A stretch of 64,000 nt of DNA from a virus. Lineage: Duplodnaviria; Heunggongvirae; Uroviricota; Caudoviricetes. The position numbers and the translations under genes were made by a program. Location: the IMG/VR virus record IMGVR_UViG_3300021166_000052, positions 197,424 to 261,423 of that record, one strand, 5' to 3'. A model generated the notes under the pieces. The model searched no databases. It had not been told where the DNA came from and was given only the letters and a program-made list of their open reading frames with translations. Shown here one piece after another: positions 4,561 through 63,448 of the stretch (position 1 is the first letter of the stretch; each line of letters opens with the position of its first letter).

Positions 4561-4583
4561 TAAAAATATATTGACATATACTT

Positions 4584-4626
4584 AAAAAGTGTTATATTAA
4601 CAGTATAACACTTTTTATATTTTATC
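4584..4626 (+). terminator. intrinsic terminator hairpin (13-bp stem aaaaagtgttata/tataacacttttt) followed by T-rich tract
   Basis: Perfect inverted repeat with a 7-nt loop and a downstream U-run, at the end of the late module. Confidence 0.5.
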
Positions 4627-4634
4627 ATATTTAC

Positions 4635-4663
4635 TTGCATTAAATTACTCGATAGTATATAAT
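4635..4663 (+). promoter_or_regulatory. sigma70-like promoter TTGCAT-17-TATAAT
   Basis: -35 at 4635-4640 and perfect -10 at 4658-4663 with a 17-nt spacer. Sits about 50 nt upstream of gene 4713, which has a GGAG RBS. Confidence 0.45.
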
Positions 4664-4712
4664 GACTCTTTAGTATAGAAAAGTATTATTTTAAAAACCG
4701 GAGCATATAATC

Positions 4713-5955: not shown

Positions 5956-6918
5956 GTGGATATTTTTTTATATAGAGGACAAACTATTATGAATAATAAA
6001 TATAATGTTATAATTAGGGATGTTGGTGTATGTGGAATGAGGATTCAGATCGATGATCTTCACGATGCTCATATTGAACTAATTAACATAATGTTGGAAA
6101 CTCATAAACGGCTTATTATTGTACTAGGGGTGCGGCCTATTATATTTACTGCAAAAAATGCATTAACATTTCAAATGAGAAAACAGGCATTTTTTGAAGT
6201 GTTTGGAAATTATAAACATCGTATTACTTTATTATATATAAACGATGTAAGAGATGATCACATATGGTCAAATAATTTTGATAATCTTATCAAAAACAAT
6301 ATTAAGGAAAACGAAACTGTTAGATGTTGCGGAGGGAGGGATTCATTTTTAAATTATTATCATAATAATATTTATGAAAAATGGGTCATTACTGATTTTA
6401 CTCAGTCAGAATTCATTTCTGCAACTGCTAAACGGAATGAGATTGCTAAAACTACAATATTTGATTCTTCATTTAGGCGGGGTGTTATTTATTCCGCATT
6501 AAATTTACCGGGACAATGTGTGCCTTCAATTGATGTAGCAATATATGATCATTATGGTAATATATTAATGGGGCAACGGGTCGATGAATTATCATATCGT
6601 TTTATTGGGGGATGGGTTCAACCGAGAGAAACGTTTGAAATGGCGTGTAATCGAATTGTAAAAACCAAATGTGGAATCGCTATTGATAATTTACAACCAA
6701 TACGTAGTTTTTGTAATTTTGATTGGAAATTTAAAGGTGAACGAGATGATTTGACAACCATGTTATATACTGCATATATAACAGAAGGTACACCTGAACC
6801 ACTGGGAAATCTTAAATATCTACGATGGGTTTCGATTGTTGATATACTGAATGTGGTCGATTCAGAACATTTGGAATTGGCAAAATCTATTTACGAGTTA
6901 CATAATGCATCAAACTAA
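5956..6918 (+). CDS. NMN adenylyltransferase-like / Nudix-fold bifunctional protein (NatV/NadM-like)
   Basis: N-terminal cytidylyltransferase-like segment (G.R.Q....HDAH). C-terminal Nudix-like box GGWVQPRETFEMACNRIV, which is degenerate. Size and architecture match phage NatV, and it sits adjacent to Nampt. Confidence 0.5.
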   Translation: MDIFLYRGQTIMNNKYNVIIRDVGVCGMRIQIDDLHDAHIELINIMLETHKRLIIVLGVRPIIFTAKNALTFQMRKQAFFEVFGNYKHRITLLYINDVRDDHIWSNNFDNLIKNNIKENETVRCCGGRDSFLNYYHNNIYEKWVITDFTQSEFISATAKRNEIAKTTIFDSSFRRGVIYSALNLPGQCVPSIDVAIYDHYGNILMGQRVDELSYRFIGGWVQPRETFEMACNRIVKTKCGIAIDNLQPIRSFCNFDWKFKGERDDLTTMLYTAYITEGTPEPLGNLKYLRWVSIVDILNVVDSEHLELAKSIYELHNASN

Positions 6919-7184: not shown

Positions 7185-8624
7185 GTGAATACAATGGAAC
7201 AAGATATGAGAAGTTTGGTAGAAGAATTTAATGTTATGACTGCAACCGATAGCTATAAACTCGGACGCGACCGCATGTTCTCTGAAGGGACCGAAAGTGT
7301 ATCCTCTTATTTTGAAGCTAGAGATGGTGCAAAATTTCAATATAATGTATTTTGTACACTCCAATATTTGTGTATGAAATATCTCTGTGGTAAGCAAGTC
7401 ACGAAAGCTAAAATCGATTGGGCTGAATATCTTTCTGAACTTCACCTCGGTCAGAAGGGCGCATTTGATCGATCCGGTTGGGATTACATCCTTCAAAAAT
7501 ACGATGGCCGGTTGCCTATTGAAATCTGTGCAGTTGCCGAAGGAACCCCTGTTCCAACTGGTAATGTTATGATGCAGATCAGAAATACCGATCCCAAAGT
7601 ACCAGTGTTATCAAATGCGATTGAGTCGATGATTACCCATGTTTGGGCAGGAACTACCGGAGCAAGTTTATCAAGGTATATCAAACAGATGCAAAAACGA
7701 TTTCTTGATATTTGTTGCGATACCCCCGATGAAGTTCTTCCTTTTATGCTGCATGATTTTGGTTATCGAGGGTCGTCAAGCCATGAATCTGCCAGACAAG
7801 TAGGCGCTGGTCACTTGCTCAATTTTTTAGGAACTGATACAGTACCAGCGATGGAATTGCTCATTCAATATTATGGAGCGTCTATTGATAGAGCGACTTT
7901 CAATGCAGGGTTTTCTATTTTTGCAACAGAACATCTTATCATGACTCAAAAAGGTGAAGCTGGTGAATTTGATGTAGTTGAAGAATTGTTGAATAAATAT
8001 CCCACTGGCAACCTTGCGATGGTAATTGATAGTTATAACTGGAAACGTTTTATTGAAACCATGGGAACACCTCGTTTCAAAGACCGTATATTGAACCGGG
8101 ATGGTAAGATTATTTTTCGGCCAGATTCAGGAAAGCCAGTTCCCACATCATTTGGTGTATGGAAAGGGCTTGCTAATATTTTTGGGTATGATACAAATAA
8201 TAAACGATATGATGTATTGAATCCAAAGGTTAGTACAATTTGGGGCGATGGTATTGATGAAGTCGAAGGTGAATCCATCTACCAAAACTTTATTGATAAT
8301 AAAATCTCGATTGAAAACTGTCCACTTGGTATGGGTGGCAATCTACATCAGAAAATCAATCGTGATACACAAAGGAACGCCTTTAAAGGTTCGTTTGTTC
8401 AACGTAATGGTGTTGGTTATGATATCTTTAAAGACCCCATTGATGGTAGTAAAAAATCTAAAAAGGGTAGGCTTGCTTTGATTAAAGATGCGGCGGGTAA
8501 TTTCCAAACCCTTCAGGGTGTGACCGGTCCAGTTGAGGGTGATCTTCTAATCCCAGTATTCCGTAATGGTGAGATGTTGAAAACATATACCCTTAATGAA
8601 ATGAGAGCAAACGCTGCATTATAA
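7185..8624 (+). CDS. nadV: nicotinamide phosphoribosyltransferase (Nampt / NadV)
   Basis: 479 aa. N-terminal TDSYK motif and overall Nampt-like length and composition. No in-frame TAG and six TGG Trp codons. Confidence 0.75.
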   Translation: MNTMEQDMRSLVEEFNVMTATDSYKLGRDRMFSEGTESVSSYFEARDGAKFQYNVFCTLQYLCMKYLCGKQVTKAKIDWAEYLSELHLGQKGAFDRSGWDYILQKYDGRLPIEICAVAEGTPVPTGNVMMQIRNTDPKVPVLSNAIESMITHVWAGTTGASLSRYIKQMQKRFLDICCDTPDEVLPFMLHDFGYRGSSSHESARQVGAGHLLNFLGTDTVPAMELLIQYYGASIDRATFNAGFSIFATEHLIMTQKGEAGEFDVVEELLNKYPTGNLAMVIDSYNWKRFIETMGTPRFKDRILNRDGKIIFRPDSGKPVPTSFGVWKGLANIFGYDTNNKRYDVLNPKVSTIWGDGIDEVEGESIYQNFIDNKISIENCPLGMGGNLHQKINRDTQRNAFKGSFVQRNGVGYDIFKDPIDGSKKSKKGRLALIKDAAGNFQTLQGVTGPVEGDLLIPVFRNGEMLKTYTLNEMRANAAL

Positions 8625-8707: not shown

Positions 8708-9067
8708 ATGTTAATTAGATCAGTTGCTATTGTTTTAGGCGATAATGATTTTGGCCAGACATTTCATAATTTATTAGAAACTATTTTACGTGTTATCGTG
8801 AATGATCCTATTATTAGTGAATATAGTATAGAAAAAATTATTAAAGAGGGCCTACGCTTTCACTACATTGCTTTTCAAAATAAATATGATCCATATTATG
8901 GGAATGGAGTGGATTCATTTAAAAAACATTTTGATCATATTGAAAATTATTTATCATCAATTCGCATTTATTTTAATGATGATGCCGAGCGAGAGTTTGA
9001 AAACGGGGATCATGATGGCGGAGCATGGATTTTATGTATACAAGATGGTTCGATTACATCATTTTAA
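8708..9067 (+). CDS. hypothetical protein
   Basis: 119-aa ORF with a strong RBS. Confidence 0.45.
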   Translation: MLIRSVAIVLGDNDFGQTFHNLLETILRVIVNDPIISEYSIEKIIKEGLRFHYIAFQNKYDPYYGNGVDSFKKHFDHIENYLSSIRIYFNDDAEREFENGDHDGGAWILCIQDGSITSF

Positions 9068-9092
9068 TGAAATAATAATGAAAGTGTGAAAA

Positions 9093-9614
9093 ATGATTAC
9101 ATTAGCAACAACATGTGGTATCTTTATTATAAATAAATTCAAACAAATACTTACATGTCATCCAACGGGTCATCATCCATTGCAATTGGATATACCAAAA
9201 GGATGTTTAGATCGAGGAGAAACTGTGTCTCAATGTGTTGTTAGAGAACTGTTAGAAGAAACTGGGATTGATTATTATACATTACAGCGGCCATTAATAG
9301 ATATTAGTGCGATACATGGGACATTTATATATAAGCATAAGAAAAAACAATTATATACATTTATGTTACAACTAAATGACACAATAGATGTAACTACCTT
9401 GAAATGTACAAGTATGGTTACGAGTGTACCCATTCCATTTCCAGAAGTAGATTCTTTTGCATGGATAGAATATAACGAAAGAGAGTTGCTACATGAATCT
9501 CAGCAACGTGCCATAGAAGTAATTAATGATCAATATAATATATTTGATTTACATTCATCCAAAGATGAAAATACTCAATATATAACAATTTCTAAAAGTA
9601 ATAATTATGGTTAA
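9093..9614 (+). CDS. Nudix hydrolase
   Basis: Canonical Nudix box GCLDRGETVSQCVVRELLEETGI (G-x5-E-x7-REUxEExGU). Confidence 0.7.
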   Translation: MITLATTCGIFIINKFKQILTCHPTGHHPLQLDIPKGCLDRGETVSQCVVRELLEETGIDYYTLQRPLIDISAIHGTFIYKHKKKQLYTFMLQLNDTIDVTTLKCTSMVTSVPIPFPEVDSFAWIEYNERELLHESQQRAIEVINDQYNIFDLHSSKDENTQYITISKSNNYG

Positions 9615-9642
9615 ATAAAAAATAATAATATTTCAAATATAT

Positions 9643-9676
9643 AGCCAGCACTTAATAGTGCTGGCTATTTTTTTTG
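9643..9676 (+). terminator. rho-independent terminator (agccagcac / gtgctggct stem plus T9)
   Basis: 9-bp GC-containing stem, 6-nt loop and a T-run directly after the Nudix gene. Confidence 0.6.
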
Positions 9677-9714
9677 TAATTAATTAATAAAAGTCAATAG
9701 TATAGGGACATTTA

Positions 9715-11343
9715 ATGTTAAGATATCAGCCTAAATATAATGTTAATGTAGATTCAACTGGATCTGGGGATTCTACAACAATAAATTTAATAAACGCGGG
9801 TAATGTTTAGGTAACAAATATTACATCTGGGGGTATTGTTTCTTCTAAAACATATATTCCCAATACTGTCCCTGCTAATTATATTTTAACTGCTGCTACA
9901 ACAGATCATCAAACTGTAACAATATTTTTTATTGCAGAACCTACAACATTATAGTCTCCAACTATTACAGTAGATGGAATAACGTGTACTAATTTAACAC
10001 AATATGCAGATGATAGACGATTATTTTCAGGGTCTGTTACAATAACAGTCGCATCATCAAAAACGGTTACACTAACTTCGAATACAGGGAAAAGTACAAC
10101 TGTTCAAGTCAATCGAGCCGCAATGGCCCCAACTATAACCGATATCAGATTTATTAATGGATATCCGGGTACTCAAACCGAAGTTAAACAAAATGATACA
10201 TTGACAGTTCGTGTAACATTTGATCCAGCAGGAACTGCCCCCACCCAAATAGATGTTATGGATTATGGTATATCACAATCTAAGACAGTTTTAACATCTT
10301 CAACTGAATTATCATAGGGAACAGTTCACACCGCCACATTTACAATATCCACAAAATATGTAGGCAACACTGCCCAATTATTACCTATACAATTACGAGC
10401 AAGAAATTTATTTGGTACTGCTAGTAATTATATAATTTCCAATGTATATGGTACTACGGAAACTATACAGGTAATGAAAGGATGTGATTTAGTTCCTACT
10501 ATTACTGTTAATGCCACTACATACCCATCGGGGCAGGGAGCTTTTAAAAATACAGAATCTGGTAACATAAATGTTACTATTTCTAATTATACAGGTGTTA
10601 CATATTCTTCTCCAAATGGAAATTTTACAATTACATCTCCAACTATATATGCTGCGTCAAAAACTATAACTTGTACTCATCCCGGAACATATAATGATTC
10701 TGTAAATAATATTAGAGTTGTAGCTACTCGTTCTGCAAATGCAACTTCTACAACAGCAAATTTCATAGTAGAAGTTGCAGATATTGCGCCTACTGTGAAT
10801 GTATATCATTCTGAATCATATTTAAGATCTACTGAAGCCGGTTACACTTATACTATATATGCTACTAGTAATCAAAATCTATTATCAGCCCCATCTTTTA
10901 ATATACCAGTTTCTGGTATATAGGTTGCTGGTGCATTTACTGGTTCTAATAAAAATTAGCAGCGAACAATATCTATTAGGGATAGTGATATAAAAGGAAC
11001 GGCTCCATAGAGTGCTACTATATTACCAACTAATAAAGCTAAAATTGATGCAATAATTACTGGAAACCAAATTGTTAGGGGATTTAGATCGAGAATTTTA
11101 CCATTACCTGCTTTTGGAACCAGTTGTACGTTAGGGACCGCTGTAACAAGTATTGCAAATTTAGTATTTTCATAGAGTTTTAAAACAGCTATGGCATATT
11201 CCCCAATTGGATCAGTTGCACCAATTGTAGGTGGATAGACTATTAGTGCATTAAATAATAATCCAACAACTATTTATATTTTAGATTCTCAGGCGGCGGC
11301 TGCTTCATCAGCGGCCAGCACAATAACTATAGAGGAAACATGA
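9715..11343 (+). CDS. virion/tail structural protein (TAG-recoded, ~9 in-frame TAG)
   Basis: Single frame from ATG 9715 to TGA 11341-11343. ORF-track pieces 10123..10317 and 10474..10923 are in the same frame. Thr/Ser/Asn-rich. No TGG seen in the long fragments. Confidence 0.55.
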
Positions 11344-26236: not shown

Positions 26237-27322
26237 ATGCTGAAAGTACAAAGCTATATTTTAGAAAAAGGTATCGAGTCTTTGACCACTGAGTTTGGAA
26301 TCAGTGTCAGAAAGTACGAAGAATTTGGAATTATGACACTTAATTATTCCCAAATTGATTCACCTAAACATGACGATATTGTAAAAGAGTGCCGTGCATT
26401 AATTTTAGAATTGGATGCACCTTATACTGTCGTTTCGAGAACTTATGATCGGTTTTTTAATTACGGGGAATGTCCCCTATCAGATCAGTTCAATGTAACA
26501 GATTATGTATTCTGGGAAAAACTTGACGGAAGTATTATTCCGGTATATAATCATTCAGGCGCATGGTACGCCGCAACACGTAAATTGGCTTTTGCCGAAG
26601 GAGAAAATTCACAGGGTTTTTGTTTCAACGATATGGTTAGAAATACCATTGATTTCAATGTGTTTGATGCCATTGACTCTGATTATACTGTAATTTTTGA
26701 ATTTGTATCTCCTAAAAATCGTATAGTAAAACGATACCTAGAGGATGAGGCATATCTTACCGGTGTTCGGAATAAAAGAACCGGTGAGGAACTTAATGAT
26801 CGTGAACTTATTGACTTCGCTGCGAAATATGGATTTAAAATCCCTAAATCGTACAAGTTCAAAACTCTCGATGATGCATTGGCAAGTTTGAAAGATTTTG
26901 ATCCTTTTGATGAAGGGTTTGTATGTGTCAATTATGATAATATGCACCGCATCAAAATTAAAAATCCATCATATGTAGCAATTGCTCACTTGAGGGACAA
27001 CGGTGTGATTTCTCCAAAACGAATCGCGTTGTTAGTTCTTGAACAGGATCATGAAGAATATTTAGCACATTTCAGTGAAGATGCACAATTTTTCCAACCA
27101 TTTATTGATGCCTATGAAGTAATGAGAGCGGATATTAATGATTGTGTTGAAAAGTACATGGGAATTGAAAATCAAAAAGAATTTGCGCTGTCAATTGCTG
27201 ACATCCCCGCAAAAAGTATTTTGTTTCAGATGCGAAAGGGTTTTTCTTTCGGGGAAGTCTTGAAAAAGGTTACATCTGAAGGTAAGCTAAATCTTCTTAA
27301 TAATTACATTAAGGATGAATAA
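26237..27322 (+). CDS. ATP-dependent RNA ligase, T4 Rnl1-like
   Basis: Nucleotidyltransferase motif I EKLDGS (KxDG), motif IV EGFV and motif V KIKIKN. About 360 aa like Rnl1. Confidence 0.6.
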   Translation: MLKVQSYILEKGIESLTTEFGISVRKYEEFGIMTLNYSQIDSPKHDDIVKECRALILELDAPYTVVSRTYDRFFNYGECPLSDQFNVTDYVFWEKLDGSIIPVYNHSGAWYAATRKLAFAEGENSQGFCFNDMVRNTIDFNVFDAIDSDYTVIFEFVSPKNRIVKRYLEDEAYLTGVRNKRTGEELNDRELIDFAAKYGFKIPKSYKFKTLDDALASLKDFDPFDEGFVCVNYDNMHRIKIKNPSYVAIAHLRDNGVISPKRIALLVLEQDHEEYLAHFSEDAQFFQPFIDAYEVMRADINDCVEKYMGIENQKEFALSIADIPAKSILFQMRKGFSFGEVLKKVTSEGKLNLLNNYIKDE

Positions 27323-39261: not shown

Positions 39262-39726
39262 ATGAATGAAATAACTGGTAATATTATAGATTTGGCCGAA
39301 CAAGGGCATTTTAATGCTATAATTCATGGTTGTAATTGTTTTGGAAATATGGGCGCTGGCCTCGCTAAAGAAATAAAACAACGATACCACTGTGCATATA
39401 AAGTGGATTATAGAACAATTAAGGGCGACAAATCTAAGTTGGGTACATATTCTTCAGTTTTAACAACGTCTAATGTCAACCCCGATTATAAATTTTATAT
39501 AATTAATGCATATACCCAATTCAGATATGGTGGTAGAACTATCAATGCAGACTATAGGGCCATCCGTAAGGTTATGAGGGCCGTGGCTGAAGATTTTAAA
39601 GAATGTGTACTAGGTATCCCATTGATTGGTGCTGGCCTCGCTGGGGGCGATTGGAGCCTAATTAAGGGTATTATAGAAGAAGAGTTGGTAAATAATAATT
39701 ATACTATTGTACATTTTAAAAAATAA
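39262..39726 (+). CDS. macro-domain protein (ADP-ribose binding/processing)
   Basis: FNAIIHGCNCFGNMGAGLAKEI and later GIPLIGAGLAGG resemble macro-domain Gly-rich loops. Confidence 0.5.
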   Translation: MNEITGNIIDLAEQGHFNAIIHGCNCFGNMGAGLAKEIKQRYHCAYKVDYRTIKGDKSKLGTYSSVLTTSNVNPDYKFYIINAYTQFRYGGRTINADYRAIRKVMRAVAEDFKECVLGIPLIGAGLAGGDWSLIKGIIEEELVNNNYTIVHFKK

Positions 39727-39728
39727 TC

Positions 39729-40256
39729 ATGAATGATAAAAAAATTACATTCAATGCAATTGATTTTGAAGCAAGTACGGGTCTTCGAACATCAGCATGT
39801 GCGGTTGCTATAGTTCGAGTTGAACAGGCTGAAATAAAAGAAGTATGGAGTACTTTAATTAAACCACCTAATAATTACTATTCACAAATGTGCATTGATG
39901 TGCATGGGTTGACACCTCAATGTACTATCAATGCACAGCCTTTTCATAAAATTTATCCAGAAATTATCAAACGTATTGATGGAATGCCTATTGTGGCCCA
40001 TAACGCTCGATATGACAAAAGTGTATTTGATGCATGTAGAAGTGCTATGTTTGCGTCTGATACATTAAATATGACCGAAAAGTGGTATTGTACATATAAA
40101 TTATATAAATCAATCCGAGAAGATAAATCTGAAGGATTGAAATTAAATAATTTATGTGATAAGTATGGAATCTCTCTTAATCATCATGATGCAACATCAG
40201 ATGCACTTGCATGTGCCCATCTATTTATTCATTATCTAAGAAATCATATCAAATGA
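39729..40256 (+). CDS. DnaQ-like (DEDDh) 3'-5' exonuclease
   Basis: Exo I DFEAS, Exo II HNARYD and Exo III HHDATSDA. Confidence 0.65.
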   Translation: MNDKKITFNAIDFEASTGLRTSACAVAIVRVEQAEIKEVWSTLIKPPNNYYSQMCIDVHGLTPQCTINAQPFHKIYPEIIKRIDGMPIVAHNARYDKSVFDACRSAMFASDTLNMTEKWYCTYKLYKSIREDKSEGLKLNNLCDKYGISLNHHDATSDALACAHLFIHYLRNHIK

Positions 40257-40675
40257 ACAGTAATTTTATACAACCATATATATACCTAAAACCATGTCCT
40301 TTTTGTGGAGAAGTGTATGATATATCATTAAAGATTGTTAAAGAAAATGGACAACCAGTATTACAAAATAATGAATATATTTGGTTTGTTGAGTGTCTAC
40401 CTTGTGATGCTGCGACCGGTTGGTATTCCATAGATAATCACAATCAACCAAATAAATCTGGGAAGGATTTGGCAGTAGATGCATGGAATCGGAGAAAATT
40501 TCCAGATTTTGATCAAACTACATGTGAAGAAATAATAATATATGCATCGACCATCGAAGAGTTAATAAATAAAATAAAAATATTAAAAATCGAAACAATT
40601 TTATCCATAAATTATGATATAAATAATCATAATAAAATAAAATGTACGATTATTCATGAGTTTAAATTAGGATAA
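40253..40675 (+). CDS. small zinc-ribbon protein
   Basis: ATG 40253 overlaps the upstream TGA (ATGA). CPFCGE...CLPCDA. Confidence 0.4.
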   Translation: MNSNFIQPYIYLKPCPFCGEVYDISLKIVKENGQPVLQNNEYIWFVECLPCDAATGWYSIDNHNQPNKSGKDLAVDAWNRRKFPDFDQTTCEEIIIYASTIEELINKIKILKIETILSINYDINNHNKIKCTIIHEFKLG

Positions 40676-41030: not shown

Positions 41031-41954
41031 ATGGTAGATTTAAATAAAATTGATTTATTGGATAAAAAAAATAATAATATAAAATTATCACCTGCTCAAA
41101 TTAAAAAAATTTATGATTCATTTGTAACGGATAATCCTATTTTGATTAATATGACGATTGCAAAAAATAATGGTATGGTAAAATATTACACGGGAAAATT
41201 GTGCAAACAGGGTCATATTACGTGTCGATATACTTCAAATCGTAGATGTGTAAAATGTGATTCTAATAATCCCGTCCTAACACAATACAAACCTATAGTA
41301 GATACAAAACATATTATATTAGATCGAATATCACAACTAAAAAAAACAAAAAAACCTAACAAAATTATAGAATTTAAAAATTATATTATTATAATCGCTA
41401 AAAGTAAATCAAAAAATCCTCATTTAATTAAAGTAGATAAAGATGATTATTATGGACTGTTACAATATTATTCATGGCATATAACTGCCCATGGGTATGC
41501 ACAAACCTCCAGTATTAGTCCAACTGGTAATTGTATTAATATCAAGATGCATCAAATGGTTTTGTTAACAAGGGGAATTGATCACCGAGATTTTAATAAA
41601 TTGAATAATTGTAAATCTAATTTACGTCCAGCTAATGCTATATTAAATAATATAAACCATCAAATTGTTGGCACATATAGAGGTGCATCCTTAACTAAAG
41701 CTGGTACATATAAGGCTTATATTGGATTCTTAGGTAAAAAATTTAGTATTGGCACATTTCCTAAAAAAATAATGGCGGCAAATGCATATGATATTATTCA
41801 TAGTTATATACATGGACCAGATACGGTTCTAAATGTGAACTCTTTTGAAAATTTTGAAGAAGAACTTAATCAATTAACACAACAGGAAGTTGATTTAATT
41901 TATACAAAAACTAATAATTTTATTAAAAATAAACTTTCCCAATTAGTAGGATGA
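41031..41954 (+). CDS. HNH homing endonuclease with AP2 DNA-binding domain
   Basis: HNH core WHITAHGYA...IDHRDFNKLNNCKSNLR. AP2-like GTYRGASLTKAGTYKAYIGFLGKKFSIGTF. Confidence 0.65.
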   Translation: MVDLNKIDLLDKKNNNIKLSPAQIKKIYDSFVTDNPILINMTIAKNNGMVKYYTGKLCKQGHITCRYTSNRRCVKCDSNNPVLTQYKPIVDTKHIILDRISQLKKTKKPNKIIEFKNYIIIIAKSKSKNPHLIKVDKDDYYGLLQYYSWHITAHGYAQTSSISPTGNCINIKMHQMVLLTRGIDHRDFNKLNNCKSNLRPANAILNNINHQIVGTYRGASLTKAGTYKAYIGFLGKKFSIGTFPKKIMAANAYDIIHSYIHGPDTVLNVNSFENFEEELNQLTQQEVDLIYTKTNNFIKNKLSQLVG

Positions 41955-42907
41955 TGTATATGAAATATGAAATGTATACTAATAAAGATGGGTCTATATC
42001 TAAATATGTACATAATGATGGATCTGAAACATCTATTAAAACATGGCCCGAAGGAGTAGAAACATGCGGTGGCTCTGGTAGAAATAAGTTTAATGTATTT
42101 GCGTCATGTAGTGTTGGATGTGCAATCAATTGTGAATTTTGCTTCTTAACAAGTAAAAAGTTTCCTTATAAATTTCTCGATTGCATTGAAATTGCTCAAA
42201 ACGTTGTAACTGCAATTAAAAGTGAATTGATTAGACGACCAGAATTAAAAGATATTCCATTTAATTTAAGCTGGATGGGAATGGGCGACGGTTGGCCAAT
42301 TTTAGATCATATTACTAAAGCAACGTATTTTATTATGAAAGAAATTGCGCCACTTGTATCATCTATTGAAGGAGTTGATATTGCAACGACATTACCAAGC
42401 ATTAGATATAATGATATAAATTTTTTGGATGCAATTGATAGTACATTGCGTAAAACTGGTAAATTAACACCCAAACCAGATACCAGAACAAATGTTAGAA
42501 TTTTTTATAGTTTACATAGTATGTTTAATAATATGAGAACCAAACTTATTCCACATACAATTAATGTTAATTGCGCGTTACCTTATTTAGAAGAAATTTC
42601 TAAACATTATAATGTAATATATCATTATTTATTATTAAATAATTTTAATGATTTTGGGGATTATATTACTGAGCTTGTTAGTTATTTTCATAAGAGAGAT
42701 TCCCAATTACGAATTTTACGTTATAATACATGCCCAAATTCAATATTTACTGAATCTGATAATTTTAACAATGTAATTGATATTTTAAATTATAATCTTA
42801 AAGATAAAGTTAAAATTCAATTATCACCGGGTAGCGAAATATCGGCGGCGTGTGGTATGTTTCTAATGAAAGAATCTTATAATTATCAAGGAACGTTAAA
42901 TGTCTGA
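41951..42907 (+). CDS. radical SAM enzyme (Cx3CxFC, RlmN/Cfr-like core)
   Basis: SCSVGCAINCEFCFLTS matches the CxxxCxFC(S/A)T pattern. Confidence 0.55.
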   Translation: MMYMKYEMYTNKDGSISKYVHNDGSETSIKTWPEGVETCGGSGRNKFNVFASCSVGCAINCEFCFLTSKKFPYKFLDCIEIAQNVVTAIKSELIRRPELKDIPFNLSWMGMGDGWPILDHITKATYFIMKEIAPLVSSIEGVDIATTLPSIRYNDINFLDAIDSTLRKTGKLTPKPDTRTNVRIFYSLHSMFNNMRTKLIPHTINVNCALPYLEEISKHYNVIYHYLLLNNFNDFGDYITELVSYFHKRDSQLRILRYNTCPNSIFTESDNFNNVIDILNYNLKDKVKIQLSPGSEISAACGMFLMKESYNYQGTLNV

Positions 42908-43085
42908 TTTAATTGATGATGATGATATATTAGATCCATTCGATGTAGCCTTTAATGATTGGTATAATAGTGAAGAAACGCAGAGAAGGTTCCATTGTGG
43001 ACATTACGATGACCGCCAAATGATAATGGCGGGGGCGTACTGGGCCAAAGCCTTTTTGAACAAAAATAAAACGTTATTAACGTAA
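42900..43085 (+). CDS. small acidic protein
   Basis: 61-aa ORF overlapping the upstream stop. Confidence 0.35.
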   Translation: MSDLIDDDDILDPFDVAFNDWYNSEETQRRFHCGHYDDRQMIMAGAYWAKAFLNKNKTLLT

Positions 43086-43093
43086 TATAATTA

Positions 43094-43152
43094 TTGACAA
43101 CAAAGCCACCATTTAGTATTAAGTATATATAAACTTAACTAATGGTGGCTTT
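43094..43152 (+). promoter_or_regulatory. TTGACA-17-TATTAA promoter plus 12-bp inverted repeat (aaagccaccatt ... aatggtggcttt) covering the first ATG of the next gene
   Basis: -35 at 43094-43099. Inverted-repeat arms at 43103-43114 and 43141-43152. The second arm contains ATG 43142 and is followed by TTTT. Confidence 0.35.
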
Positions 43153-43966
43153 TATGTTAAATGAAAAATGTAATCGTACTTTTGCTAACGGTATCGTATA
43201 CTTAATGGAAACCGAGGATGGTTATCCCATTGAAGTGACCGATACATTTTTACCATATTATACCAAAGATGCAGTTGGTCCCCACCAAAATAAACTTTCA
43301 TCCACGGATTTAGGAAGCAGGAATGAGCGGTGGATGGTGGGTGTTTCCACAATGTCCGGTTGTCCCGTAAGATGTAAATTTTGTGCAACTGGTAAATTAA
43401 ATAAGGTTCGCAATCTTACTTGGCAGGAGATTTGTGATCAAGTCCTTTTTGTTATTTATAAGAATCGGGACAGTGAAGGAAATGTAATTTTCAATCCCGT
43501 TGAAGCGAAAGAATTTAAGATTAACTATACTCGAATGGGCGAACCCTTTTTGAACATTGAAAATGTTCGCAAAGCCATTGAGTGGTTGGATGATAGGTTT
43601 CCCGCTATAAGAATTCATCATTATGTTTCAACAATTGGTATTACGGGCGCTGATTATTCATGGATTAAAGATAATGTAACATTACAATTTTCAGTGCATT
43701 CATTTACTGAATCATATCGTAACTGGTTAATCCCATATAAAAATAAAATTTCACTGGAAGAAATGGGAAAAGTTCGAACTAGTAGTAATCTTAAAACAAC
43801 TATTAATTTAACTTTAACTAGACCTGAAGATTTTGATATCGTTGCATTAAAAAACTATTTTAATAAAGAGCATTTTTTTATTAAATTGAGTCCAATTAAT
43901 ACAAATACCATCTCAGAAAAAAATAATATTGTAGATGGTGTTATTCATACGGAGAATATTAAATGA
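43142..43966 (+). CDS. radical SAM enzyme, RlmN/Cfr-family-like
   Basis: GCPVRCKFCATGKLNKVRNLTWQEI closely parallels RlmN [25 protein letters not shown]. True start may be ATG 43154. Confidence 0.6.
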   Translation: MVAFMLNEKCNRTFANGIVYLMETEDGYPIEVTDTFLPYYTKDAVGPHQNKLSSTDLGSRNERWMVGVSTMSGCPVRCKFCATGKLNKVRNLTWQEICDQVLFVIYKNRDSEGNVIFNPVEAKEFKINYTRMGEPFLNIENVRKAIEWLDDRFPAIRIHHYVSTIGITGADYSWIKDNVTLQFSVHSFTESYRNWLIPYKNKISLEEMGKVRTSSNLKTTINLTLTRPEDFDIVALKNYFNKEHFFIKLSPINTNTISEKNNIVDGVIHTENIK

Positions 43967-44157
43967 TACAAGTTGTATTATTGGTTTGCATAGCAGTTAT
44001 AGCTGGAATTTTTTTGGTTAGTTTACTTGACTTTATGTTATATATATCGTCGTGCTTATTTAATAGTTTAAGTTGTTGTATTGTCAAAAAACAAAAAAAC
44101 CATTATATATTAGGCATAAACAAAACTACCAATGAATGGGAAATTAAATATTTTTAA
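43963..44157 (+). CDS. small membrane protein
   Basis: Hydrophobic 64-aa ORF. Confidence 0.35.
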   Translation: MIQVVLLVCIAVIAGIFLVSLLDFMLYISSCLFNSLSCCIVKKQKNHYILGINKTTNEWEIKYF

Positions 44158-44171
44158 ATTGGAGATATACA

Positions 44172-44444
44172 ATGGCACCTACTAAAAAAAATAAAGAAGT
44201 TGAAATTATTTCTAAATTACGATTACGTTTTGCAAGTAGTAAAGAATTTGTAGAAGCTATTTTTGATATGTATGATGGGGGTATGATTTCAAGAGAATCT
44301 TTAATTGATGTCATCTGTTCAAATTTAACAGATGCTCCGTCAATTAGTAAAGTAATTAAATCAGAAACCCCGGCTGTAACAACTAAACCCACAATAACTA
44401 GCGACCCATGTAGAGGTAGTAGTTCTAGGAGTTCATGTTCATAG
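44172..44444 (+). CDS. hypothetical small protein
   Basis: 90-aa ORF with Ser/Thr-rich C-terminus. Confidence 0.35.
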   Translation: MAPTKKNKEVEIISKLRLRFASSKEFVEAIFDMYDGGMISRESLIDVICSNLTDAPSISKVIKSETPAVTTKPTITSDPCRGSSSRSSCS

Positions 44445-44641
44445 TGAAAATATTGAAAAATGTTATATCATTTCGTGAACGATATATATTACATTCATAT
44501 AATCTATACGGTAATATAAAAGTTTTTAATAGGATTCAATATTGTAGATGGTACTGGCCCATCAATTTAATATCTTGGATATTGAACCGTATATTTAATT
44601 ATAATTGTAATATATATCAAAAAAACATATAATAATGGGGG

Positions 44642-45532
44642 TTGTATAATTATATCATGAGTGATTTTATTGATAAAATAAAATTTAAAAATAGTGATTG
44701 TAGTTTAAATCAACAACCACCCCAAATTATTAATGAACGGTATGTTAATTTGTATGTTAAAATTGCAGACACTTGTAATGCTAACTGTCCATTTTGCGTT
44801 TATCATAATAAATTCCCCAATTTTATCTTTGATTTTAAAAAATTTAAATATATAATTAACACTTTACTACGAAATGATATTGAAATTCATAAAATTTCGT
44901 TTACAGGTGGAGAACCGACAACTAATAGAAGCGGTTTACATGATGTAATAAAATTTTTAGGACATCTTCCTATTAAACCATTTATAGTGGTCAATACCAA
45001 TGGGTTCCGTTTGGATTGGTTAACTACTTTAGATGGTATTGATAGTATAGCATTATCACGTCATGCAGTTTCTGATAATGATCAATATCAAATAATGAAC
45101 ACCAAAACGTGCCCAACTGCGAGTAATATACAATTTCATGCAAGTGATAAAATTCACTTGACATGTAACCTTATTAATGGTTATATTGATAGTGTATATA
45201 AGGTTGAGGAATATTTGGAATTCTGTCAATCTATTGGTATTTATGATGTCGGGTTCGTTAGTTTGATGAAAGTAAATCACTATTGCGAACAACATCACTT
45301 GGATTTTGATGATATTAAAATTGAAACATCCGGGAGGGTAGCATGTAACAGAGAATGGAATTGCACCGATATATGCAAATGTAAAAATTATTTATATTTA
45401 CCCACCAAAGGCACCAGATTAGTGAAGTTCTATTCACGATATCGATGTAAGGATAATGTTGACATGGGTAGCACATTGGTATATGATGGAACTTCACTAA
45501 GAACAAATTTTTCTTCAGACGTTTTAATATGA
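44642..45532 (+). CDS. radical SAM enzyme with Cys-rich C-terminal (SPASM/twitch-like) extension
   Basis: CNANCPFC near the N-terminus. C-terminal CNREWNCTDICKCKNY. Confidence 0.55.
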   Translation: MYNYIMSDFIDKIKFKNSDCSLNQQPPQIINERYVNLYVKIADTCNANCPFCVYHNKFPNFIFDFKKFKYIINTLLRNDIEIHKISFTGGEPTTNRSGLHDVIKFLGHLPIKPFIVVNTNGFRLDWLTTLDGIDSIALSRHAVSDNDQYQIMNTKTCPTASNIQFHASDKIHLTCNLINGYIDSVYKVEEYLEFCQSIGIYDVGFVSLMKVNHYCEQHHLDFDDIKIETSGRVACNREWNCTDICKCKNYLYLPTKGTRLVKFYSRYRCKDNVDMGSTLVYDGTSLRTNFSSDVLI

Positions 45533-45762
45533 AAGTAATACGAAAAAAATTAAATGATCTATTTGAACAGAATTGGTGTCCGCGTTGTGGAAAGATAACA
45601 CCAATGCAGGGTATTGCATATTTACCCGGTATTTTACGTAAACAATGTAAAATTTGTAAAGGTAGTATAGTTGCAAATTTTCTTGATAGTGAATCAGATA
45701 TGATCACTATTCCCGACGATTTAATAATTCCAACAGAAGGTGATAACAATGACACAGACTAA
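45529..45762 (+). CDS. zinc-ribbon protein
   Basis: CPRCGK...CKICKG. Confidence 0.4.
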   Translation: MKVIRKKLNDLFEQNWCPRCGKITPMQGIAYLPGILRKQCKICKGSIVANFLDSESDMITIPDDLIIPTEGDNNDTD

Positions 45763-45907
45763 ACAAGAATATGTAAATGACGTTGTTGAAGATTTGATCA
45801 AAGCTGAACTTGAAGAAGCTGGCTATGACTATGCAATTGCAATTGCTACCAATGCTGAAATTGCAGCAGGGGCAGCATGTGGACAACTAGCCATTATTGG
45901 TGAATAA
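45749..45907 (+). CDS. 52-aa peptide MTQTKQEYVNDVVEDLIKAELEEAGYDYAIAIATNAEIAAGAACGQLAIIGE, candidate modified-peptide precursor
   Basis: Unannotated short ORF directly downstream of three radical SAM genes. Acidic helical N-terminal part and Gly/Ala/Cys-containing C-terminal part. Confidence 0.25.
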   Translation: MTQTKQEYVNDVVEDLIKAELEEAGYDYAIAIATNAEIAAGAACGQLAIIGE

Positions 45908-48020: not shown

Positions 48021-48257
48021 ATGGGTGGTATCATGGCATTTATAAAAATTGAATTGGATCGATGTGTTGATATTACTAGAAATATTAAATGCCCGTATGT
48101 CACTGAAAAATTGACAAAAGGTTATGGTTATGCAGTTGATTATATGTGTAGATTAAATGATAATAAAATTGTATCGGGTTATGTTGAATGGGATAGAGAT
48201 GTAAACCCCGTTCCAGATTGGTGCCCATTGTTAATTAAGGATAATATTAATGACTGA
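48021..48257 (+). CDS. hypothetical protein
   Basis: 78-aa ORF. Confidence 0.4.
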   Translation: MGGIMAFIKIELDRCVDITRNIKCPYVTEKLTKGYGYAVDYMCRLNDNKIVSGYVEWDRDVNPVPDWCPLLIKDNIND

Positions 48258-49269
48258 TTTTAAAATAACTTACGAGCGAGACATTGAACATTGTACTGTC
48301 TCACCTTATATTAAATTTGTGACTATATCAGATGTATATAATGCAATCAATTCTGATATGTTAGATTGTGTAAAATTTGATGAAATAGGGTGGCAAGCTG
48401 TGTCAGCTAGGGGTACACGAAAGGTTGGTGATCGTGTATTATTTATCCCAGCCGAGTCAGTATTACCATTCGAGTTGGGTGAGTTACTTGATGTGACAAA
48501 ATATCTTTCTAAGGGAAGAGTTCGAGTCACATCGTTACGTGGCAACCGTTCAGAGGGTATTATTGTTGAAGAGGATGTTATTGGTCCTTATATTCCATAT
48601 ATTATGAAATGGGAAGATTTACCATCTATTTCAATGTGTGGTCAGCAACTAGCAGCGGCTGAAATAAGCCCATATATACATAGATTTTATAAAATGCCCA
48701 ACATTTTAAATGAACCAAAGACATTTGATGTGGGAGAAACTATACATTATAGTGAGAAAATTCATGGAACTAATTGGAGAGTTGGTATTTTACCACATCC
48801 TGTTACAGAAGAGTTAATGTTATATACGGGTAGTCATGATGTGGTATTGCAATTAACCGGTGAGAATGTATATGTCAGAGCCGCTACTGCTGTACAAGAA
48901 AATTTACCAGAAGGAATATTATTTTTTGGTGAAATTTTTGGCAGGGGTATTCAACATTTAAATTATGGCACTGTATTTGGGTATAGATTTTTTGCAGCTA
49001 CCAGAAGAGGTGAATATTTACCAATTGATGAATTTACTCAAATTTGTAAATTACATAATTTACCATATGTAGAGTTGAGTAAAATTATATTCACAGGTGA
49101 CATTGAACCAATTCGTCAATTATCAGAGGGCCAATCTGAATATGCAGACCATATCAAAGAAGGTATTGTTATGGTTTCTGATAAATACCCCGAACGGATG
49201 GCAAAATGTATCAGTTTTGTCTATTTGGAAAATAAGAATGGAAAACGAAAACGAACTGAACGACATTAA
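48250..49269 (+). CDS. ATP-dependent RNA ligase, T4 Rnl2-like
   Basis: Motif I EKIHGTN identical to T4 Rnl2. Motif III FFGEIFG, motif IV EGIVMV and motif V K..K. Confidence 0.7.
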   Translation: MTDFKITYERDIEHCTVSPYIKFVTISDVYNAINSDMLDCVKFDEIGWQAVSARGTRKVGDRVLFIPAESVLPFELGELLDVTKYLSKGRVRVTSLRGNRSEGIIVEEDVIGPYIPYIMKWEDLPSISMCGQQLAAAEISPYIHRFYKMPNILNEPKTFDVGETIHYSEKIHGTNWRVGILPHPVTEELMLYTGSHDVVLQLTGENVYVRAATAVQENLPEGILFFGEIFGRGIQHLNYGTVFGYRFFAATRRGEYLPIDEFTQICKLHNLPYVELSKIIFTGDIEPIRQLSEGQSEYADHIKEGIVMVSDKYPERMAKCISFVYLENKNGKRKRTERH

Positions 49270-51832: not shown

Positions 51833-52918
51833 ATGAAAATAGTTATAACTGGTGGTATTGGATCGGGTAAATCTACAATTGCTAAATTTGTTAGAGATAA
51901 TCTATTACCATCATTTGATTTTATTAGTGTTGATGACATTGTTGCAAATATTTATTCATTGGAAGACATTCGTGATAAATTGATATCAACTTTTAACACA
52001 TGTGATAAAAAAACTATCAGTAAATTGGTATTTAATGATTCTATATTATTAAATAAACTCTATAATATTTTGAATCCTACTATATTTCATCAACTTCAAA
52101 GTTTTATTTCACTATCCAATAACATTATTATTGAATTTCCTTTATATTTTCAATTTGGTGATTCTTTTAAAGATGACATTGATTATGTATTACATGTCAA
52201 ATGTAATAATACTGCTCGTAAACAGAGAGTTATATCACGTGATAATATAACAGAAGATATGTTCAATAAAATTGATGCATGTCAATGGTATAAAACCGAA
52301 ACAACTGATAATATCATACCAATTTATAACGATGATATTAATACCGCTTATAATCATGTAATATTAGCTATCAATGCTATCAAGAAAAAAATAAAATATA
52401 ATAAAAAAGGTATAGTATCAGGATCATTCGATCCTATTACACATGGACATCTTCATATTATTAAAACTGCGATTACTATTGTTGATCAAGTTTATGTAGT
52501 GGTCGGACGAAATTACGAAAAAAAACATTACTTTGATATATGGGAACGGATCAATCTAGTACGACAATCAATTGACGAACACTTTACAGCAATTGAAAAG
52601 GAGAAAATTGTATTTGATATTCTCGAAGAAAATGAATTACTTGTTACATTTGCTAAAACCAATGACATAGGTTTTATTTTTAGAGGACTACGTGATTTTA
52701 TCGATTTGGGTTATGAAACTAAATTAAATTTGGTTCAAAAAAAGATTGCACCGACGATTGAAACGGTTTATCTTTTTACCCCTAGAGATAAAATTGAAAT
52801 CAGTAGTTCTATGATTAAAAGCAATTTAAGTTTACATGAATGGGAACTGGTTGTAAAAGATTATATACCAACTTGTGTTTTCAATGCATTAAAGGATAAA
52901 AGAAATCATGGTAAATAA
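51833..52918 (+). CDS. bifunctional P-loop kinase (dephospho-CoA kinase CoaE-like) / nucleotidyltransferase (PPAT CoaD-like, HxGH family)
   Basis: N-terminal KIVITGGIGSGKSTIA is the CoaE signature. C-terminal GIVSGSFDPITHGHLHIIK is the PPAT/NMNAT (T/H)xGH motif. Confidence 0.55.
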   Translation: MKIVITGGIGSGKSTIAKFVRDNLLPSFDFISVDDIVANIYSLEDIRDKLISTFNTCDKKTISKLVFNDSILLNKLYNILNPTIFHQLQSFISLSNNIIIEFPLYFQFGDSFKDDIDYVLHVKCNNTARKQRVISRDNITEDMFNKIDACQWYKTETTDNIIPIYNDDINTAYNHVILAINAIKKKIKYNKKGIVSGSFDPITHGHLHIIKTAITIVDQVYVVVGRNYEKKHYFDIWERINLVRQSIDEHFTAIEKEKIVFDILEENELLVTFAKTNDIGFIFRGLRDFIDLGYETKLNLVQKKIAPTIETVYLFTPRDKIEISSSMIKSNLSLHEWELVVKDYIPTCVFNALKDKRNHGK

Positions 52919-62154: not shown

Positions 62155-62242
62155 GGTGGGTTGGCGGAGTCTGGTCTATCGCGCTTGTTTGCTAAACAAG
62201 TGAACGCAAGTTCCACTAGTTCGAATCTAGTACCCATCGCCA
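62155..62242 (+). tRNA. tRNA-Ser (anticodon GCU, class II)
   Basis: Acceptor ggtgggt/acccatc. Anticodon stem cttgt/acaag with loop ttgctaa gives GCU. Variable-arm hairpin gaac-gcaa-gttc. T-arm actag-ttcgaat-ctagt. Discriminator G and encoded CCA. Confidence 0.75.
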
Positions 62243-62398: not shown

Positions 62399-63448
62399 AT
62401 GTTTATTTCTACTAATAAGTTTGGTACTGCTAATATTTATGAAGAGTCTGATATATTAAATAAAAAAATATATATTTATAACTGTGCTTGTTTAACAATT
62501 CATACCGAAACTTTGGGATGGGCTAATAAACATAAGAATTGCATTGTTAATAATCCGGTTGACGCTGATGTTATCATTGTATTGGGATGTCAAGTAACGG
62601 ACTTAGCCATTCATAATGATATTCAAACCCTCCTCGCTTTTCAATTTAAATATGGTTGTGAAGATAAACTTATATTGTTTGGTGGTTGTATCGGCCAACG
62701 ATTTGATATTTTTCCAACTGTTTTTAATCGCATCGATTTATTATATTCAAATTATCAACCAGTTACTGATGATTCATTAATAACGTGGCAACATCCATTC
62801 TGGATAAAACAATCAGAAACTAATTCATTTTTACGAACTGATAAAAAAGATTTCAAATATATTAGAGTTGGAAAAGGTTGTCATGGTAGATGTCAATATT
62901 GTACCATTCGTATTACTCGTAAAGATCCGGTTACATTAGATTTAAATAAATTACTTCCTCAGTTCGAAGAGTGTGCAGGGTCTAATAAAATAATCATACC
63001 GGTTGCTGACACGCTTACAATTCCTCAAATTGAACACCTATATGGAATTGCTATTCAATATAAAATAAAATTTGCATTAAGGAATATAGAACCTAGTAAT
63101 GCAGTTGCTACTAGTGATACCTTATTAAAATTTTCAGAAAGTGGACTACTTGATACAATTCATATACCAATTCAATCAACAAATAAGGATTCATTACGCC
63201 AAATGAACCGAAGTATTAATGATACGTTTGAATCAATTGAATTGATTAAAAATATTAAATCAAATGGGGTATATACTGCAACTAATGTAATTATTAACTA
63301 TAATGATCAATCAAGTGGATATAATACCATTAAAGAAATTTTTGATCATGTTGCATGGAACCCCTATTGGAATGGGAAATGGGATATCGTTACCGCCGCT
63401 AGACGGATGACCCAATATATCCCATTTTATCAAATTTCAATTAACTAA
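62399..63448 (+). CDS. radical SAM methylthiotransferase-like (MiaB/RimO-family core, no TRAM domain)
   Basis: N-terminal MTTase-like Cys triad region (YNCAC, VLGCQVTD). Radical SAM CHGRCQYC. Confidence 0.5.
   Translation: MFISTNKFGTANIYEESDILNKKIYIYNCACLTIHTETLGWANKHKNCIVNNPVDADVIIVLGCQVTDLAIHNDIQTLLAFQFKYGCEDKLILFGGCIGQRFDIFPTVFNRIDLLYSNYQPVTDDSLITWQHPFWIKQSETNSFLRTDKKDFKYIRVGKGCHGRCQYCTIRITRKDPVTLDLNKLLPQFEECAGSNKIIIPVADTLTIPQIEHLYGIAIQYKIKFALRNIEPSNAVATSDTLLKFSESGLLDTIHIPIQSTNKDSLRQMNRSINDTFESIELIKNIKSNGVYTATNVIINYNDQSSGYNTIKEIFDHVAWNPYWNGKWDIVTAARRMTQYIPFYQISIN

Follow-up and report, generated by a model that had tools for sequence, protein, structure and literature searches.

A peptide of 52 amino acids (aa), encoded at the end of a cluster of three radical S-adenosylmethionine (SAM) genes, raises the question of whether it is a substrate of the enzymes encoded beside it or a part of one of them. 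The locus lies in a stretch of phage DNA (Caudoviricetes) of 64,000 nucleotides (nt), positions 197,424 to 261,423 of the IMG/VR record IMGVR_UViG_3300021166_000052, hereafter the window; it is AT-rich (~30% G+C) and comes from a metagenomic contig of 276 kb with phage features. From 41951 to 45907 every plausible gene is on the + strand, and three proteins with a CxxxCxxC motif are interleaved with the products of small open reading frames (ORFs). The first-pass annotation had described this layout, and all ORFs listed there are present, with exact motifs and peptide sequence. It had left two readings side by side: maturation of a ribosomally synthesized and post-translationally modified peptide (RiPP), with the terminal 52-aa product as precursor, and C-methylation of RNA. 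Comparison across phages points to another role for the terminal peptide (I in the list below). Its homology with RlmN and its pairing with protein C make it, with good probability, the Cys355 loop of a fissioned RlmN/Cfr-like enzyme, encoded in trans. The genes of the block are the following.

A, 41951-42907, + strand: 318 aa, motif CAINCEFC, putative unsplit, divergent RlmN/Cfr-like radical SAM enzyme
B, 42900-43085, + strand: 61 aa, acidic, after A
C, 43142-43966, + strand: 274 aa, motif GCPVRCKFCATG, predicted large subunit of a split RlmN/Cfr-like enzyme
D, 43963-44157, + strand: 64 aa, hydrophobic, overlapping the stop codon of C (ATGA)
E, 44172-44444, + strand: 90 aa, Ser/Thr-rich, C-terminal end DPCRGSSSRSSCS, candidate small partner of G
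F, 44435-44632, + strand: 65 aa, in the spacer between E and G
G, 44642-45532, + strand: 296 aa from a TTG start, motif CNANCPFC, Cys-rich C-terminus, predicted MoaA-like radical SAM enzyme of the twitch type
H, 45529-45762, + strand: 77 aa, zinc ribbon (CxxC…CxxC), between G and I
I, 45749-45907, + strand: 52 aa, predicted small subunit of the split enzyme

Homologues of A, C, G, E and I recur in conserved order on other phage contigs, so that their arrangement is not due to chance. These homologues are described from contig loci fetched around them, with 5-8 kb on each side (L-numbers), and from database proteins (P-numbers).

Protein C carries the radical SAM cluster C74/C78/C81 in the motif CPVRCKFC, invariant in the family. 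Both C and G score above the Pfam Radical_SAM cut-off, and the best NCBIfam matches of A and C are RlmN/Cfr models, in line with the earlier view that two of the three enzymes are RlmN/Cfr-like. For C, the match to TIGR00048 (71.4 bits, cut-off 290) extends over profile positions 101-244, and the RlmN/Cfr models match residues 60-210 only. In alignments with Escherichia coli RlmN, hhalign covers residues 113-315 (E 6e-14) and phmmer reaches only to ~256; the chain ends near RlmN residue 315-330 and has no C-terminal cysteine. At the other end, alignments begin at RlmN residue 95-113, and C possesses the N-terminal beta extension without the N-terminal helical domain. The AF2 model of C, with a predicted local distance difference test (pLDDT) value of 89.6, starts with beta strands and has nine PDB matches at E<=1e-3, all of them RlmN or Cfr (template modelling (TM) scores 0.57-0.64), the next match having E = 0.04. 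C is no local truncation, since 2216 homologues exist in the database and the 120 listed are uniformly 261-285 aa long, none having the length of a C–I fusion. The family corresponds in PHROGs to phrog_24834, with its function given as unknown, and is labelled hypothetical in GenBank records.

The first clue to the whereabouts of the missing C-terminus came from the crAss-like phage Kehishuvirus ‘tikkala’, in which a C homologue of 262 aa is followed 2 bases later, in a different frame, by a 43-aa ORF (MEKEIKEQLEKEGYDYGVAIATEAEIKAQAACGQLASILENQE) clearly homologous to I of the window. The two Kehishuvirus products, once concatenated, match TIGR00048 over positions 102-345 of 355 with 81.2 bits, and three Cfr models almost end to end. 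In the window, I contains the segment …GYDYAIAIATNAEIAAGAACGQLA…, in which C44 of AACGQLA is the counterpart of RlmN Cys355. The I family aligns to RlmN residues 332-359 (a helix, the last beta strand and DIDAACGQLA), with AACGQLA identical and an hhalign E of 2e-4. The alignments thus point to homology of I with RlmN residues ~329-359, which comprise, besides the helix and the final beta strand, the loop of the methyl-carrier Cys355. When the C and I families are concatenated, colinearity with RlmN is extended from residues 113-315 to residues 113-359, with an hhalign score of 118.3 (E 1e-16) against 98.7 (E 6e-14) for C alone.

Enzyme A provides an internal reference for this comparison. By its alignments, A reads as a complete but divergent RlmN/Cfr-like enzyme, separate from C and I. 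It scores 69.9 bits against TIGR00048 (cut-off 290) and 36-37 bits against Cfr models, and its residues 34-304 align to E. coli RlmN residues 86-342, AACG included (phmmer against PDB sequences); as the alignment begins at residue 86, the N-terminal helical (HhH-like) domain is lacking here too. The radical SAM cluster of A is C54/C58/C61, and its C-terminal EISAACGMF corresponds to the RlmN C355 loop. In the 96 members of the A family (300-350 aa), the invariant cysteines are the three of the cluster and C298, the equivalent of RlmN C355, found in cis within AACG; C258 is present in 84%. Against the profile of this unsplit family, C occupies columns 42-268 (E 3e-17) and I columns 274-314 (E 4e-5), with no overlap. 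C and I therefore tile the A family, and I fills exactly the segment that C lacks, as would the detached piece of C.

I is a genuine protein, under strong purifying selection. Its ATG is located 5 nt after a Shine-Dalgarno sequence (GAAGGTGA), and its start overlaps the stop codon of H. Over 13 aligned sequences, 13 columns are identical and one cysteine is invariant, while the N-terminal part is variable. In 48 distinct DNA versions of the I core (23 codons), mean pairwise differences amount to 3.3, 1.8 and 13.7 at the first, second and third codon positions, with 12325 synonymous versus 4386 non-synonymous codon differences; as this DNA set was picked by the protein motif, the contrast is inflated, but third positions are indeed saturated. 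A phmmer search of 1.84 billion representative proteins (E<=1e-3) gave 78 clusters of I homologues at 50% identity. Nearly all of these proteins stand alone, are 42-131 aa long and carry the motif C-terminally; a C–I fusion, which would have ~300 aa, is not among the 78 clusters.

Pairing of the two genes is widespread. I is present in 69 of the 75 loci fetched around C homologues, and the pair is conserved over phages of Bacteroidota, Firmicutes and Proteobacteria. The family takes in crAss-like phages abundant in the human gut, giant phages and cultured phages of Bacteroides, Moorella, Pectobacterium, Yersinia and Vibrio. Three cultured phages with the pair, Kehishuvirus tikkala, Moorella phage MTATph1 and Pectobacterium phage Wc4, have it as a minimal unit of C and I alone, a 92-aa ORF lying between the two genes in Wc4. 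Across loci, I begins with its own Met and is found in all three frames relative to C, after TAA or TGA stops. Read-through, frameshifting or splicing as a means of joining C to I is ruled out by the three frames, the TAA and TGA stops, the separate Met and the Shine-Dalgarno sequence. An Rfam scan of the window returned two tRNAs only and no intron.

The same data bear on the proposal that I is the precursor of a RiPP, in which an acidic helix would serve as leader and a Gly/Ala/Cys stretch as core, and that the three radical SAM enzymes process it. Its small size, its acidic N-terminus and its position at the end of a radical SAM cluster would suit such a role. The conservation runs the wrong way for a precursor, the would-be core being near invariant and the N-terminal part variable. 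I is moreover colinear with the C-termini of RlmN and of the A family and completes C, travels with C in phages without any other radical SAM gene, and is in places fused to enzymes. A precursor role for I, as first suggested, is thus very improbable, and the peptide is better regarded as the C-terminal piece of C.

A further possibility is decay, in which C would be an RlmN-like gene that has been truncated and is degenerating, and I a leftover fragment without function. C does lack RlmN segments, and degraded copies exist in a few loci. This explanation is barely credible in view of the size and uniform length of the C family, the strong purifying selection on I, the retention of the pair in phages of three phyla and the start codon and Shine-Dalgarno sequence proper to I. 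As to the degraded loci themselves, L063 has (at ~10979-11095) an I homologue without the CGQL segment (…AGAASIITEE), 3.3 kb from C, and in L060, L067, L068 and L070 the C match is truncated and I is missing. Locus L015 is identical to L013 until the middle of a second radical SAM gene (~9260), then diverges fully, with no I within 8 kb.

The cysteine pattern departs from that of the characterized enzymes. RlmN and Cfr use a methyl-carrier cysteine (RlmN C355, Cfr C338) and a resolving cysteine (RlmN C118, Cfr C105) located seven residues before the first cluster cysteine. In RlmN, C355 bears the methyl group and forms a protein–RNA crosslink, and C118 is indispensable to resolve this crosslink (PMC9692996). 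The methyl-carrier cysteine is in the same polypeptide in A; for C it is carried by I. The resolving cysteine has no counterpart in either enzyme. Over 120 sequences of the C family only the three cluster cysteines are invariant, and the position of Cys118 is an invariant Gly in the motif RWM.GVS.MSGCP, likewise in the distant Moorella and Pectobacterium homologues. In A the aligned residue is Phe, and a cysteine two residues downstream (ASCSVGC) is found in only 30% of the family. With Gly at this position, an adduct between the phage enzyme and its substrate would either need another means of resolution or remain in place.

Taken together, C and I are best explained as the two pieces of a class-A radical SAM methyl synthase, of the RlmN/Cfr type, that has undergone fission, a reading that we hold, for the full mechanism, with moderate confidence. 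C would be the radical SAM core and I the detached C-terminal strand and loop, docking on C in trans, completing its fold and bringing in the cysteine. By analogy with RlmN Cys355, this cysteine would be methylated by SAM, after which an S-CH2 radical would attack an adenine sp2 carbon, presumably C2 or C8 of an adenine in RNA. In the absence of Cys118, either another route would resolve the adduct or the peptide would stay on the substrate. Alongside, G may act on the tail of E, which is Gly/Ser-rich and ends with a terminal or near-terminal cysteine, the probable site, and A would be a third element, a separate, unsplit RlmN-like paralogue. The homology, colinearity and co-occurrence of C and I, the fusions described below, the purifying selection and the conservation of the cysteine are observations. 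Complementation in trans, chemistry and substrate of C·I are what we infer.

If the peptide does stay on the substrate, I would be a sacrificial co-substrate, consumed when its Cys-S-CH2- group is joined to C2 or C8 of an adenine in RNA or DNA. The invariant Gly at the C118 position is in favour, as is the lack, in C and in I, of any conserved cysteine besides the known ones. The C118A variant of RlmN traps such a protein–RNA crosslink (PMC9692996), and PDB entries 5hr6 and 5hr7 are among the matches of C. With the cysteine loop detached, the catalytic core could turn over while the peptide is spent, and I is indeed a microprotein translated on its own, behind a good Shine-Dalgarno sequence, and strongly conserved. 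Three points oppose this. C118 may serve as a general base (PMC9692996), a role in which another residue could replace it; the unsplit A family, also without a conserved C118, would by the same logic inactivate itself; and fusions of I with G or with a methyltransferase would join a whole enzyme to the target, so that a reusable subunit or carrier fits better. A sacrificial role of I is hence unlikely. If true, it would mean that a peptide of 4-6 kDa is grafted on specific adenines of host or phage tRNA, rRNA or DNA, that is, an enzymatic peptide–nucleic-acid conjugation, for takeover or protection of translation or of the genome.

The fusions belong to a broader pattern, I being a portable module, repeatedly found beside or fused to SAM-using enzymes. 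In several database and contig sequences (L004/L087, P0150, P0157) I is fused to the C-terminus of G, which indicates, as far as fusions can tell, that G is physically beside the C·I enzyme. In the commonest crAss-like group (e.g. L013; also L098-L101), a second radical SAM gene and a methyltransferase gene lie between C and I; in L013 the first (8780-9547) encodes a 255-aa protein with an unusual CX11CX2C motif (CNMNESTGVNGNCYFC) and the second (9522-9968) a 148-aa class-I methyltransferase (Methyltransf_11, 28.3 bits, above cut-off). P0351 is a natural methyltransferase–I fusion. This portable placement fits a docking subunit or a methyl carrier better than a disposable tag. I could even act as a ‘methyl carrier protein’ that is used repeatedly: the linked class-I methyltransferase would charge it, and radical SAM partners would draw on it in common. 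A Barstar RNase-inhibitor domain is joined to an I-type C-terminus in P0348 (175 aa; Pfam Barstar E 8.5e-10), which may hint at a setting of RNase conflict or be an artefact of gene calling.

The third radical SAM enzyme, G, is of another kind. By sequence it is a generic protein of the MoaA/NifB/PqqE type, with 38.9 bits against Pfam Radical_SAM. Its NCBIfam matches are weak, with moaA at 41.6 bits (cut-off 284), viperin at 36 bits (cut-off 180) and HxsC, and the matches to the radical SAM core also comprise the models for the peptide-modifying HxsC, TrsS and YydG; against PADLOC pVip, G scores 41 bits over the radical SAM core only, the viperin family threshold not being reached. No match of G to SPASM (TIGR04085 or PF13186) was found at E<=0.1. 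The AF2 model (pLDDT 96) has MoaA 2fb2 as its best PDB match, over the full length, at TM 0.67 and 18% identity, followed in the Foldseek search by GDGT-MAS, viperins, BlsE, SkfB, NifB and SuiB. G is thus, as modelled, a MoaA-like radical SAM enzyme of the twitch type and not a SPASM protein; of the earlier ‘SPASM/twitch-like’ label, the Cys-rich auxiliary tail stands and SPASM falls. An alternative ATG start at 44657, used in the database version P0121, gives 291 aa. In this numbering the cluster is C40/C44/C47, and C15, C170, C240 and C242 are also invariant and could be ligands of an auxiliary cluster. Among the 124 members of the family are the G–I fusions P0150 and P0157.

An E-type ORF stands directly upstream of every true G relative examined (21 loci); weak homologues of E itself were recognized in L083, L002 and L004. 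The 21 E-type proteins have an alignable N-terminal helical part and a variable, Gly/Ser-rich tail. Cysteine is the last residue in 19 of them (…DPCGHGGGYRGNPC, …SPCGSSYGRRSSC, …DPCGRSSSSSISRC, …GSCGNHQSSSSNGRC) and the second to last in the window and its close relative L083, and a second cysteine is found 8-13 residues upstream in 17 of the 21. In L081, L094, L102, L103 and L105 the E–G pair is present while C and I are not. E and G form a second recurrent module, apparently undescribed, in which E, and not I, is the RiPP-like candidate, as substrate or partner of G. The RiPP-maturase-like layout proposed for the locus accordingly survives in part: it fails for I, and for E–G it is suggested by the gene order and the sequence pattern in the 21 loci. 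No RiPP recognition element (RRE) domain, protease, exporter or modified product was identified for E–G. In L081 (409-2770, binned as Desulfosporosinus), the pair lies beside an ATP-grasp ligase of the R2K type (PF14243/PF18299) and near a Gly/His/Ala/Ser-rich, secreted-looking protein, a different context for the G family.

The two modules might also serve one pathway, in which C, E, G and I would jointly assemble, on the cysteine tail of E, either a modified peptide or a scaffold-borne small molecule, to be methylated by C·I in place of a nucleic acid. The order C–E–G–I is kept in the window, L002, L016, L077, L083 and L086-L101, hence in many contigs of large phages; E combines a conserved, leader-like N-terminal part with its variable Cys-ended tail, the G core resembles peptide-modifying enzymes, both in NCBIfam and in structure (SkfB, SuiB), and the G–I fusions join the modules. 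The modules are separable, with C and I alone in crAss-like, Moorella and Pectobacterium phages and E–G alone elsewhere. Class-A methyl synthases are known only for adenine sp2 carbons, C2 and C8 (PMC9692996), and the E tails have no conserved aromatic or sp2 target. A single pathway is for these reasons quite unlikely.

If C·I acts on adenine, its substrate can be sought in the gene surroundings, of which the following features are relevant.

RNA ligase, 26237-27322: T4 Rnl1-like
Macro domain protein, 39262-39726: upstream of the block
RNase T-like exonuclease, 39729-40256: upstream of the block
Lar-like restriction-alleviation protein, 40250-40675: upstream of the block
RNA ligase, 48250-49269, + strand: DRB0094 / Rnl type, Pfam RNA_ligase E 1.7e-11, NCBIfam TIGR02306 E 1.1e-16, 2.3 kb downstream
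Fourth radical SAM gene, 62399-63448, + strand: MiaB/RimO type (UPF0004 N-terminal domain), directly after tRNA-Ser(gct) at 62155-62242

MiaB acts on C2 of tRNA A37, the atom that RlmN methylates. RNA ligases or RtcB are also encoded within 5-8 kb of the C/G module in L002, L004/L087, L006, L064, L077/L096, L083 and L108, which represent at least six lineages besides that of the window. On the strength of the enzyme family, whose known class-A members all modify C2 or C8 of RNA adenines, and of the nearby genes for RNA repair and tRNA modification, RNA as substrate of C·I is an evenly balanced proposition. It could be tRNA position 37 or an rRNA site, of host or phage, perhaps amid anticodon-nuclease conflicts; a DNA adenine or a peptide-borne substrate is possible as well. 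The link to C-methylation of RNA adenine appears the better of the two original readings. The ligases, macro domain, RNase T-like and Lar-like proteins give the radical SAM block a setting of RNA repair and anti-defence. In L083, a PurA/PurZ-like adenylosuccinate synthetase homologue (4137-5132; PF00709, E 1.5e-28), without counterpart in the window, lies between A and C. PurZ enzymes make 2-aminoadenine genomes, and a link of this gene to purine C2 chemistry is conceivable.

Several results weigh against the proposed split methyl synthase and its RNA target. The concatenated C and I of the window score only 73.5 bits in NCBIfam, and the alignment extends only to profile position 265. Taken alone, I has modest sequence support, with hhalign E values of 2e-4 (RlmN) and 4e-5 (A family), and a hidden Markov model of the I alignment run against PDB sequences gave chance matches and did not retrieve RlmN, the motif being too short for the HMMER filters. 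Neither A nor C comes near the curated RlmN/Cfr cut-offs (~70 bits versus 290-633). With such scores, and with neither the N-terminal helical domain nor a conserved C118, the substrate and even the type of reaction may differ from those of RlmN and Cfr. The link of E–G to C–I consists of gene order and fusion. Finally, crAss-like loci have no RNA-ligase neighbours, and large phages cluster their nucleic-acid genes, which makes the neighbourhood of RNA ligases circumstantial.

Comparison with known systems helps to place the two modules. RlmN and Cfr (23S rRNA m2A2503 and tRNA m2A37 for the former, m8A2503 for the latter) share with A and C the radical SAM core and the N-terminal beta extension, and with A in cis and I in trans the loop AACG(Q/M)(L/F) with the methyl-carrier cysteine. 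They differ in that the cysteine loop of C is a separate gene product of 39-68 aa, that Cys118 is Gly in C and not conserved in A, that the N-terminal helical domain is absent, that scores reach ~70-80 bits versus curated values of 290-633 (TIGR00048 290; Cfr models 468-550), and that the genes are phage-encoded. Lacking C355 in cis, C118, the N-terminal domain and curated scores, C·I is a variant rather than a member of RlmN/Cfr. MoaA, the GTP 3',8-cyclase, superposes on G over its full length and likewise has extra invariant cysteines. The auxiliary cysteines of MoaA follow the pattern CX2CX13C, unlike those of G (C15, C170 and a CxC at 240/242), and sequence similarity is low (41.6 bits versus 284). 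Also unlike MoaA, G is always accompanied by a small protein with a cysteine at or next to the end of its tail, and this pairing with an E-type protein points to a peptide or protein, not to free GTP, as its partner. Enzymes of the SkfB and BtrN type are other twitch-domain radical SAM enzymes to be set beside G.

In the PqqE/PqqA, MftC/MftA and SkfB/SkfA pairs and in ranthipeptide and sactipeptide systems, a precursor gene is followed by a maturase gene, an order that E–G resembles; E is conserved in its N-terminal part, and its C-terminal tail is hypervariable and contains cysteines. MftA and PqqA, too, undergo modification close to their C-terminal ends. Unlike these pairs, G has no SPASM match, and E–G is phage-encoded and linked, sometimes by fusion, to a piece of an RlmN-like enzyme. 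As to the split itself, phages possess ‘genes in pieces’, such as ribonucleotide reductase and topoisomerase subunits divided by insertion of homing endonucleases. C and I resemble these in that one ancestral enzyme is made as two polypeptides, which would have to come together again, with other genes in between in several lineages. The C/I split is by contrast ancient and fixed over phages of at least three bacterial phyla, its small piece is a microprotein of 4-6 kDa bearing a catalytic residue, and what lies between the pieces is not endonucleases but genes that act as functional partners, namely E, G, a second radical SAM gene and a methyltransferase.

RlmN and Cfr are textbook cases of radical methylation via a methylcysteine of the protein itself; Cfr, which confers antibiotic resistance, is of clinical importance. 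To our knowledge, both key cysteines are always in one polypeptide in the characterized members. A literature search brought up no report of an RlmN-like enzyme that is split or specific to phages, which is no proof of absence from the literature; a comparative review of jumbo phages does not mention radical SAM (PMC7824862). The phage pair would be a natural dissection of the mechanism, with the methyl-carrier cysteine on a separate microprotein and the resolving cysteine missing, fixed in a very large phage family. It raises the questions of how the adduct is resolved, whether the peptide is reused or spent, and which target these phages modify. The analysis proposes a function for a widespread, unannotated microprotein and for PHROG families listed as unknown, and draws attention to MoaA-like radical SAM enzymes that recur together with a small protein having a cysteine at or next to its C-terminus.

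The other small ORFs of the block are less conserved. B has a counterpart in L083 (3744-3932; 52% identity, E 4e-10), with a shared motif FHCG.Y…AYWA and one cysteine, and no family match in the Pfam, NCBIfam and PHROG profile scans. It accompanies A only in this syntenic contig and is absent next to A in L084 and L085; the idea that B supplies A with a resolving cysteine in trans was dropped, B being found with A only in the closest lineage. D has no homologue in any fetched locus and may be lineage-specific or not a gene. F, without homologues in the fetched loci or family matches, is probably not a gene; elsewhere E abuts G. H has weak zinc-ribbon matches in Pfam and no homologue in the fetched loci; in other loci I comes directly after G or is fused to it. 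A scan for promoters and terminators gave no enrichment versus shuffled sequence, and PADLOC defence models gave only weak matches of the viperin type, which cover the radical SAM core in G and in the product of the second crAss-like radical SAM gene.

Immediately upstream of A lies one neighbour outside the system.

HNH homing-endonuclease-like ORF, 41031-41954, + strand: PHROG phrog_99, E 1.4e-13

PHROG matches confirm this endonuclease, which had been taken as a sign that the block might be mobile cargo. The closest syntenic contig, L083, has the same block with no HNH gene at that position; the HNH gene is a lineage-specific insertion and hence no evidence for mobility of the block. Elsewhere in the window, a NUDIX protein (5956-6918), NAMPT (7185-8624) and a fusion of CoaE with a cytidylyltransferase (51833-52918) form an NAD/CoA salvage set, of the type that phages use against NAD-depleting defences.

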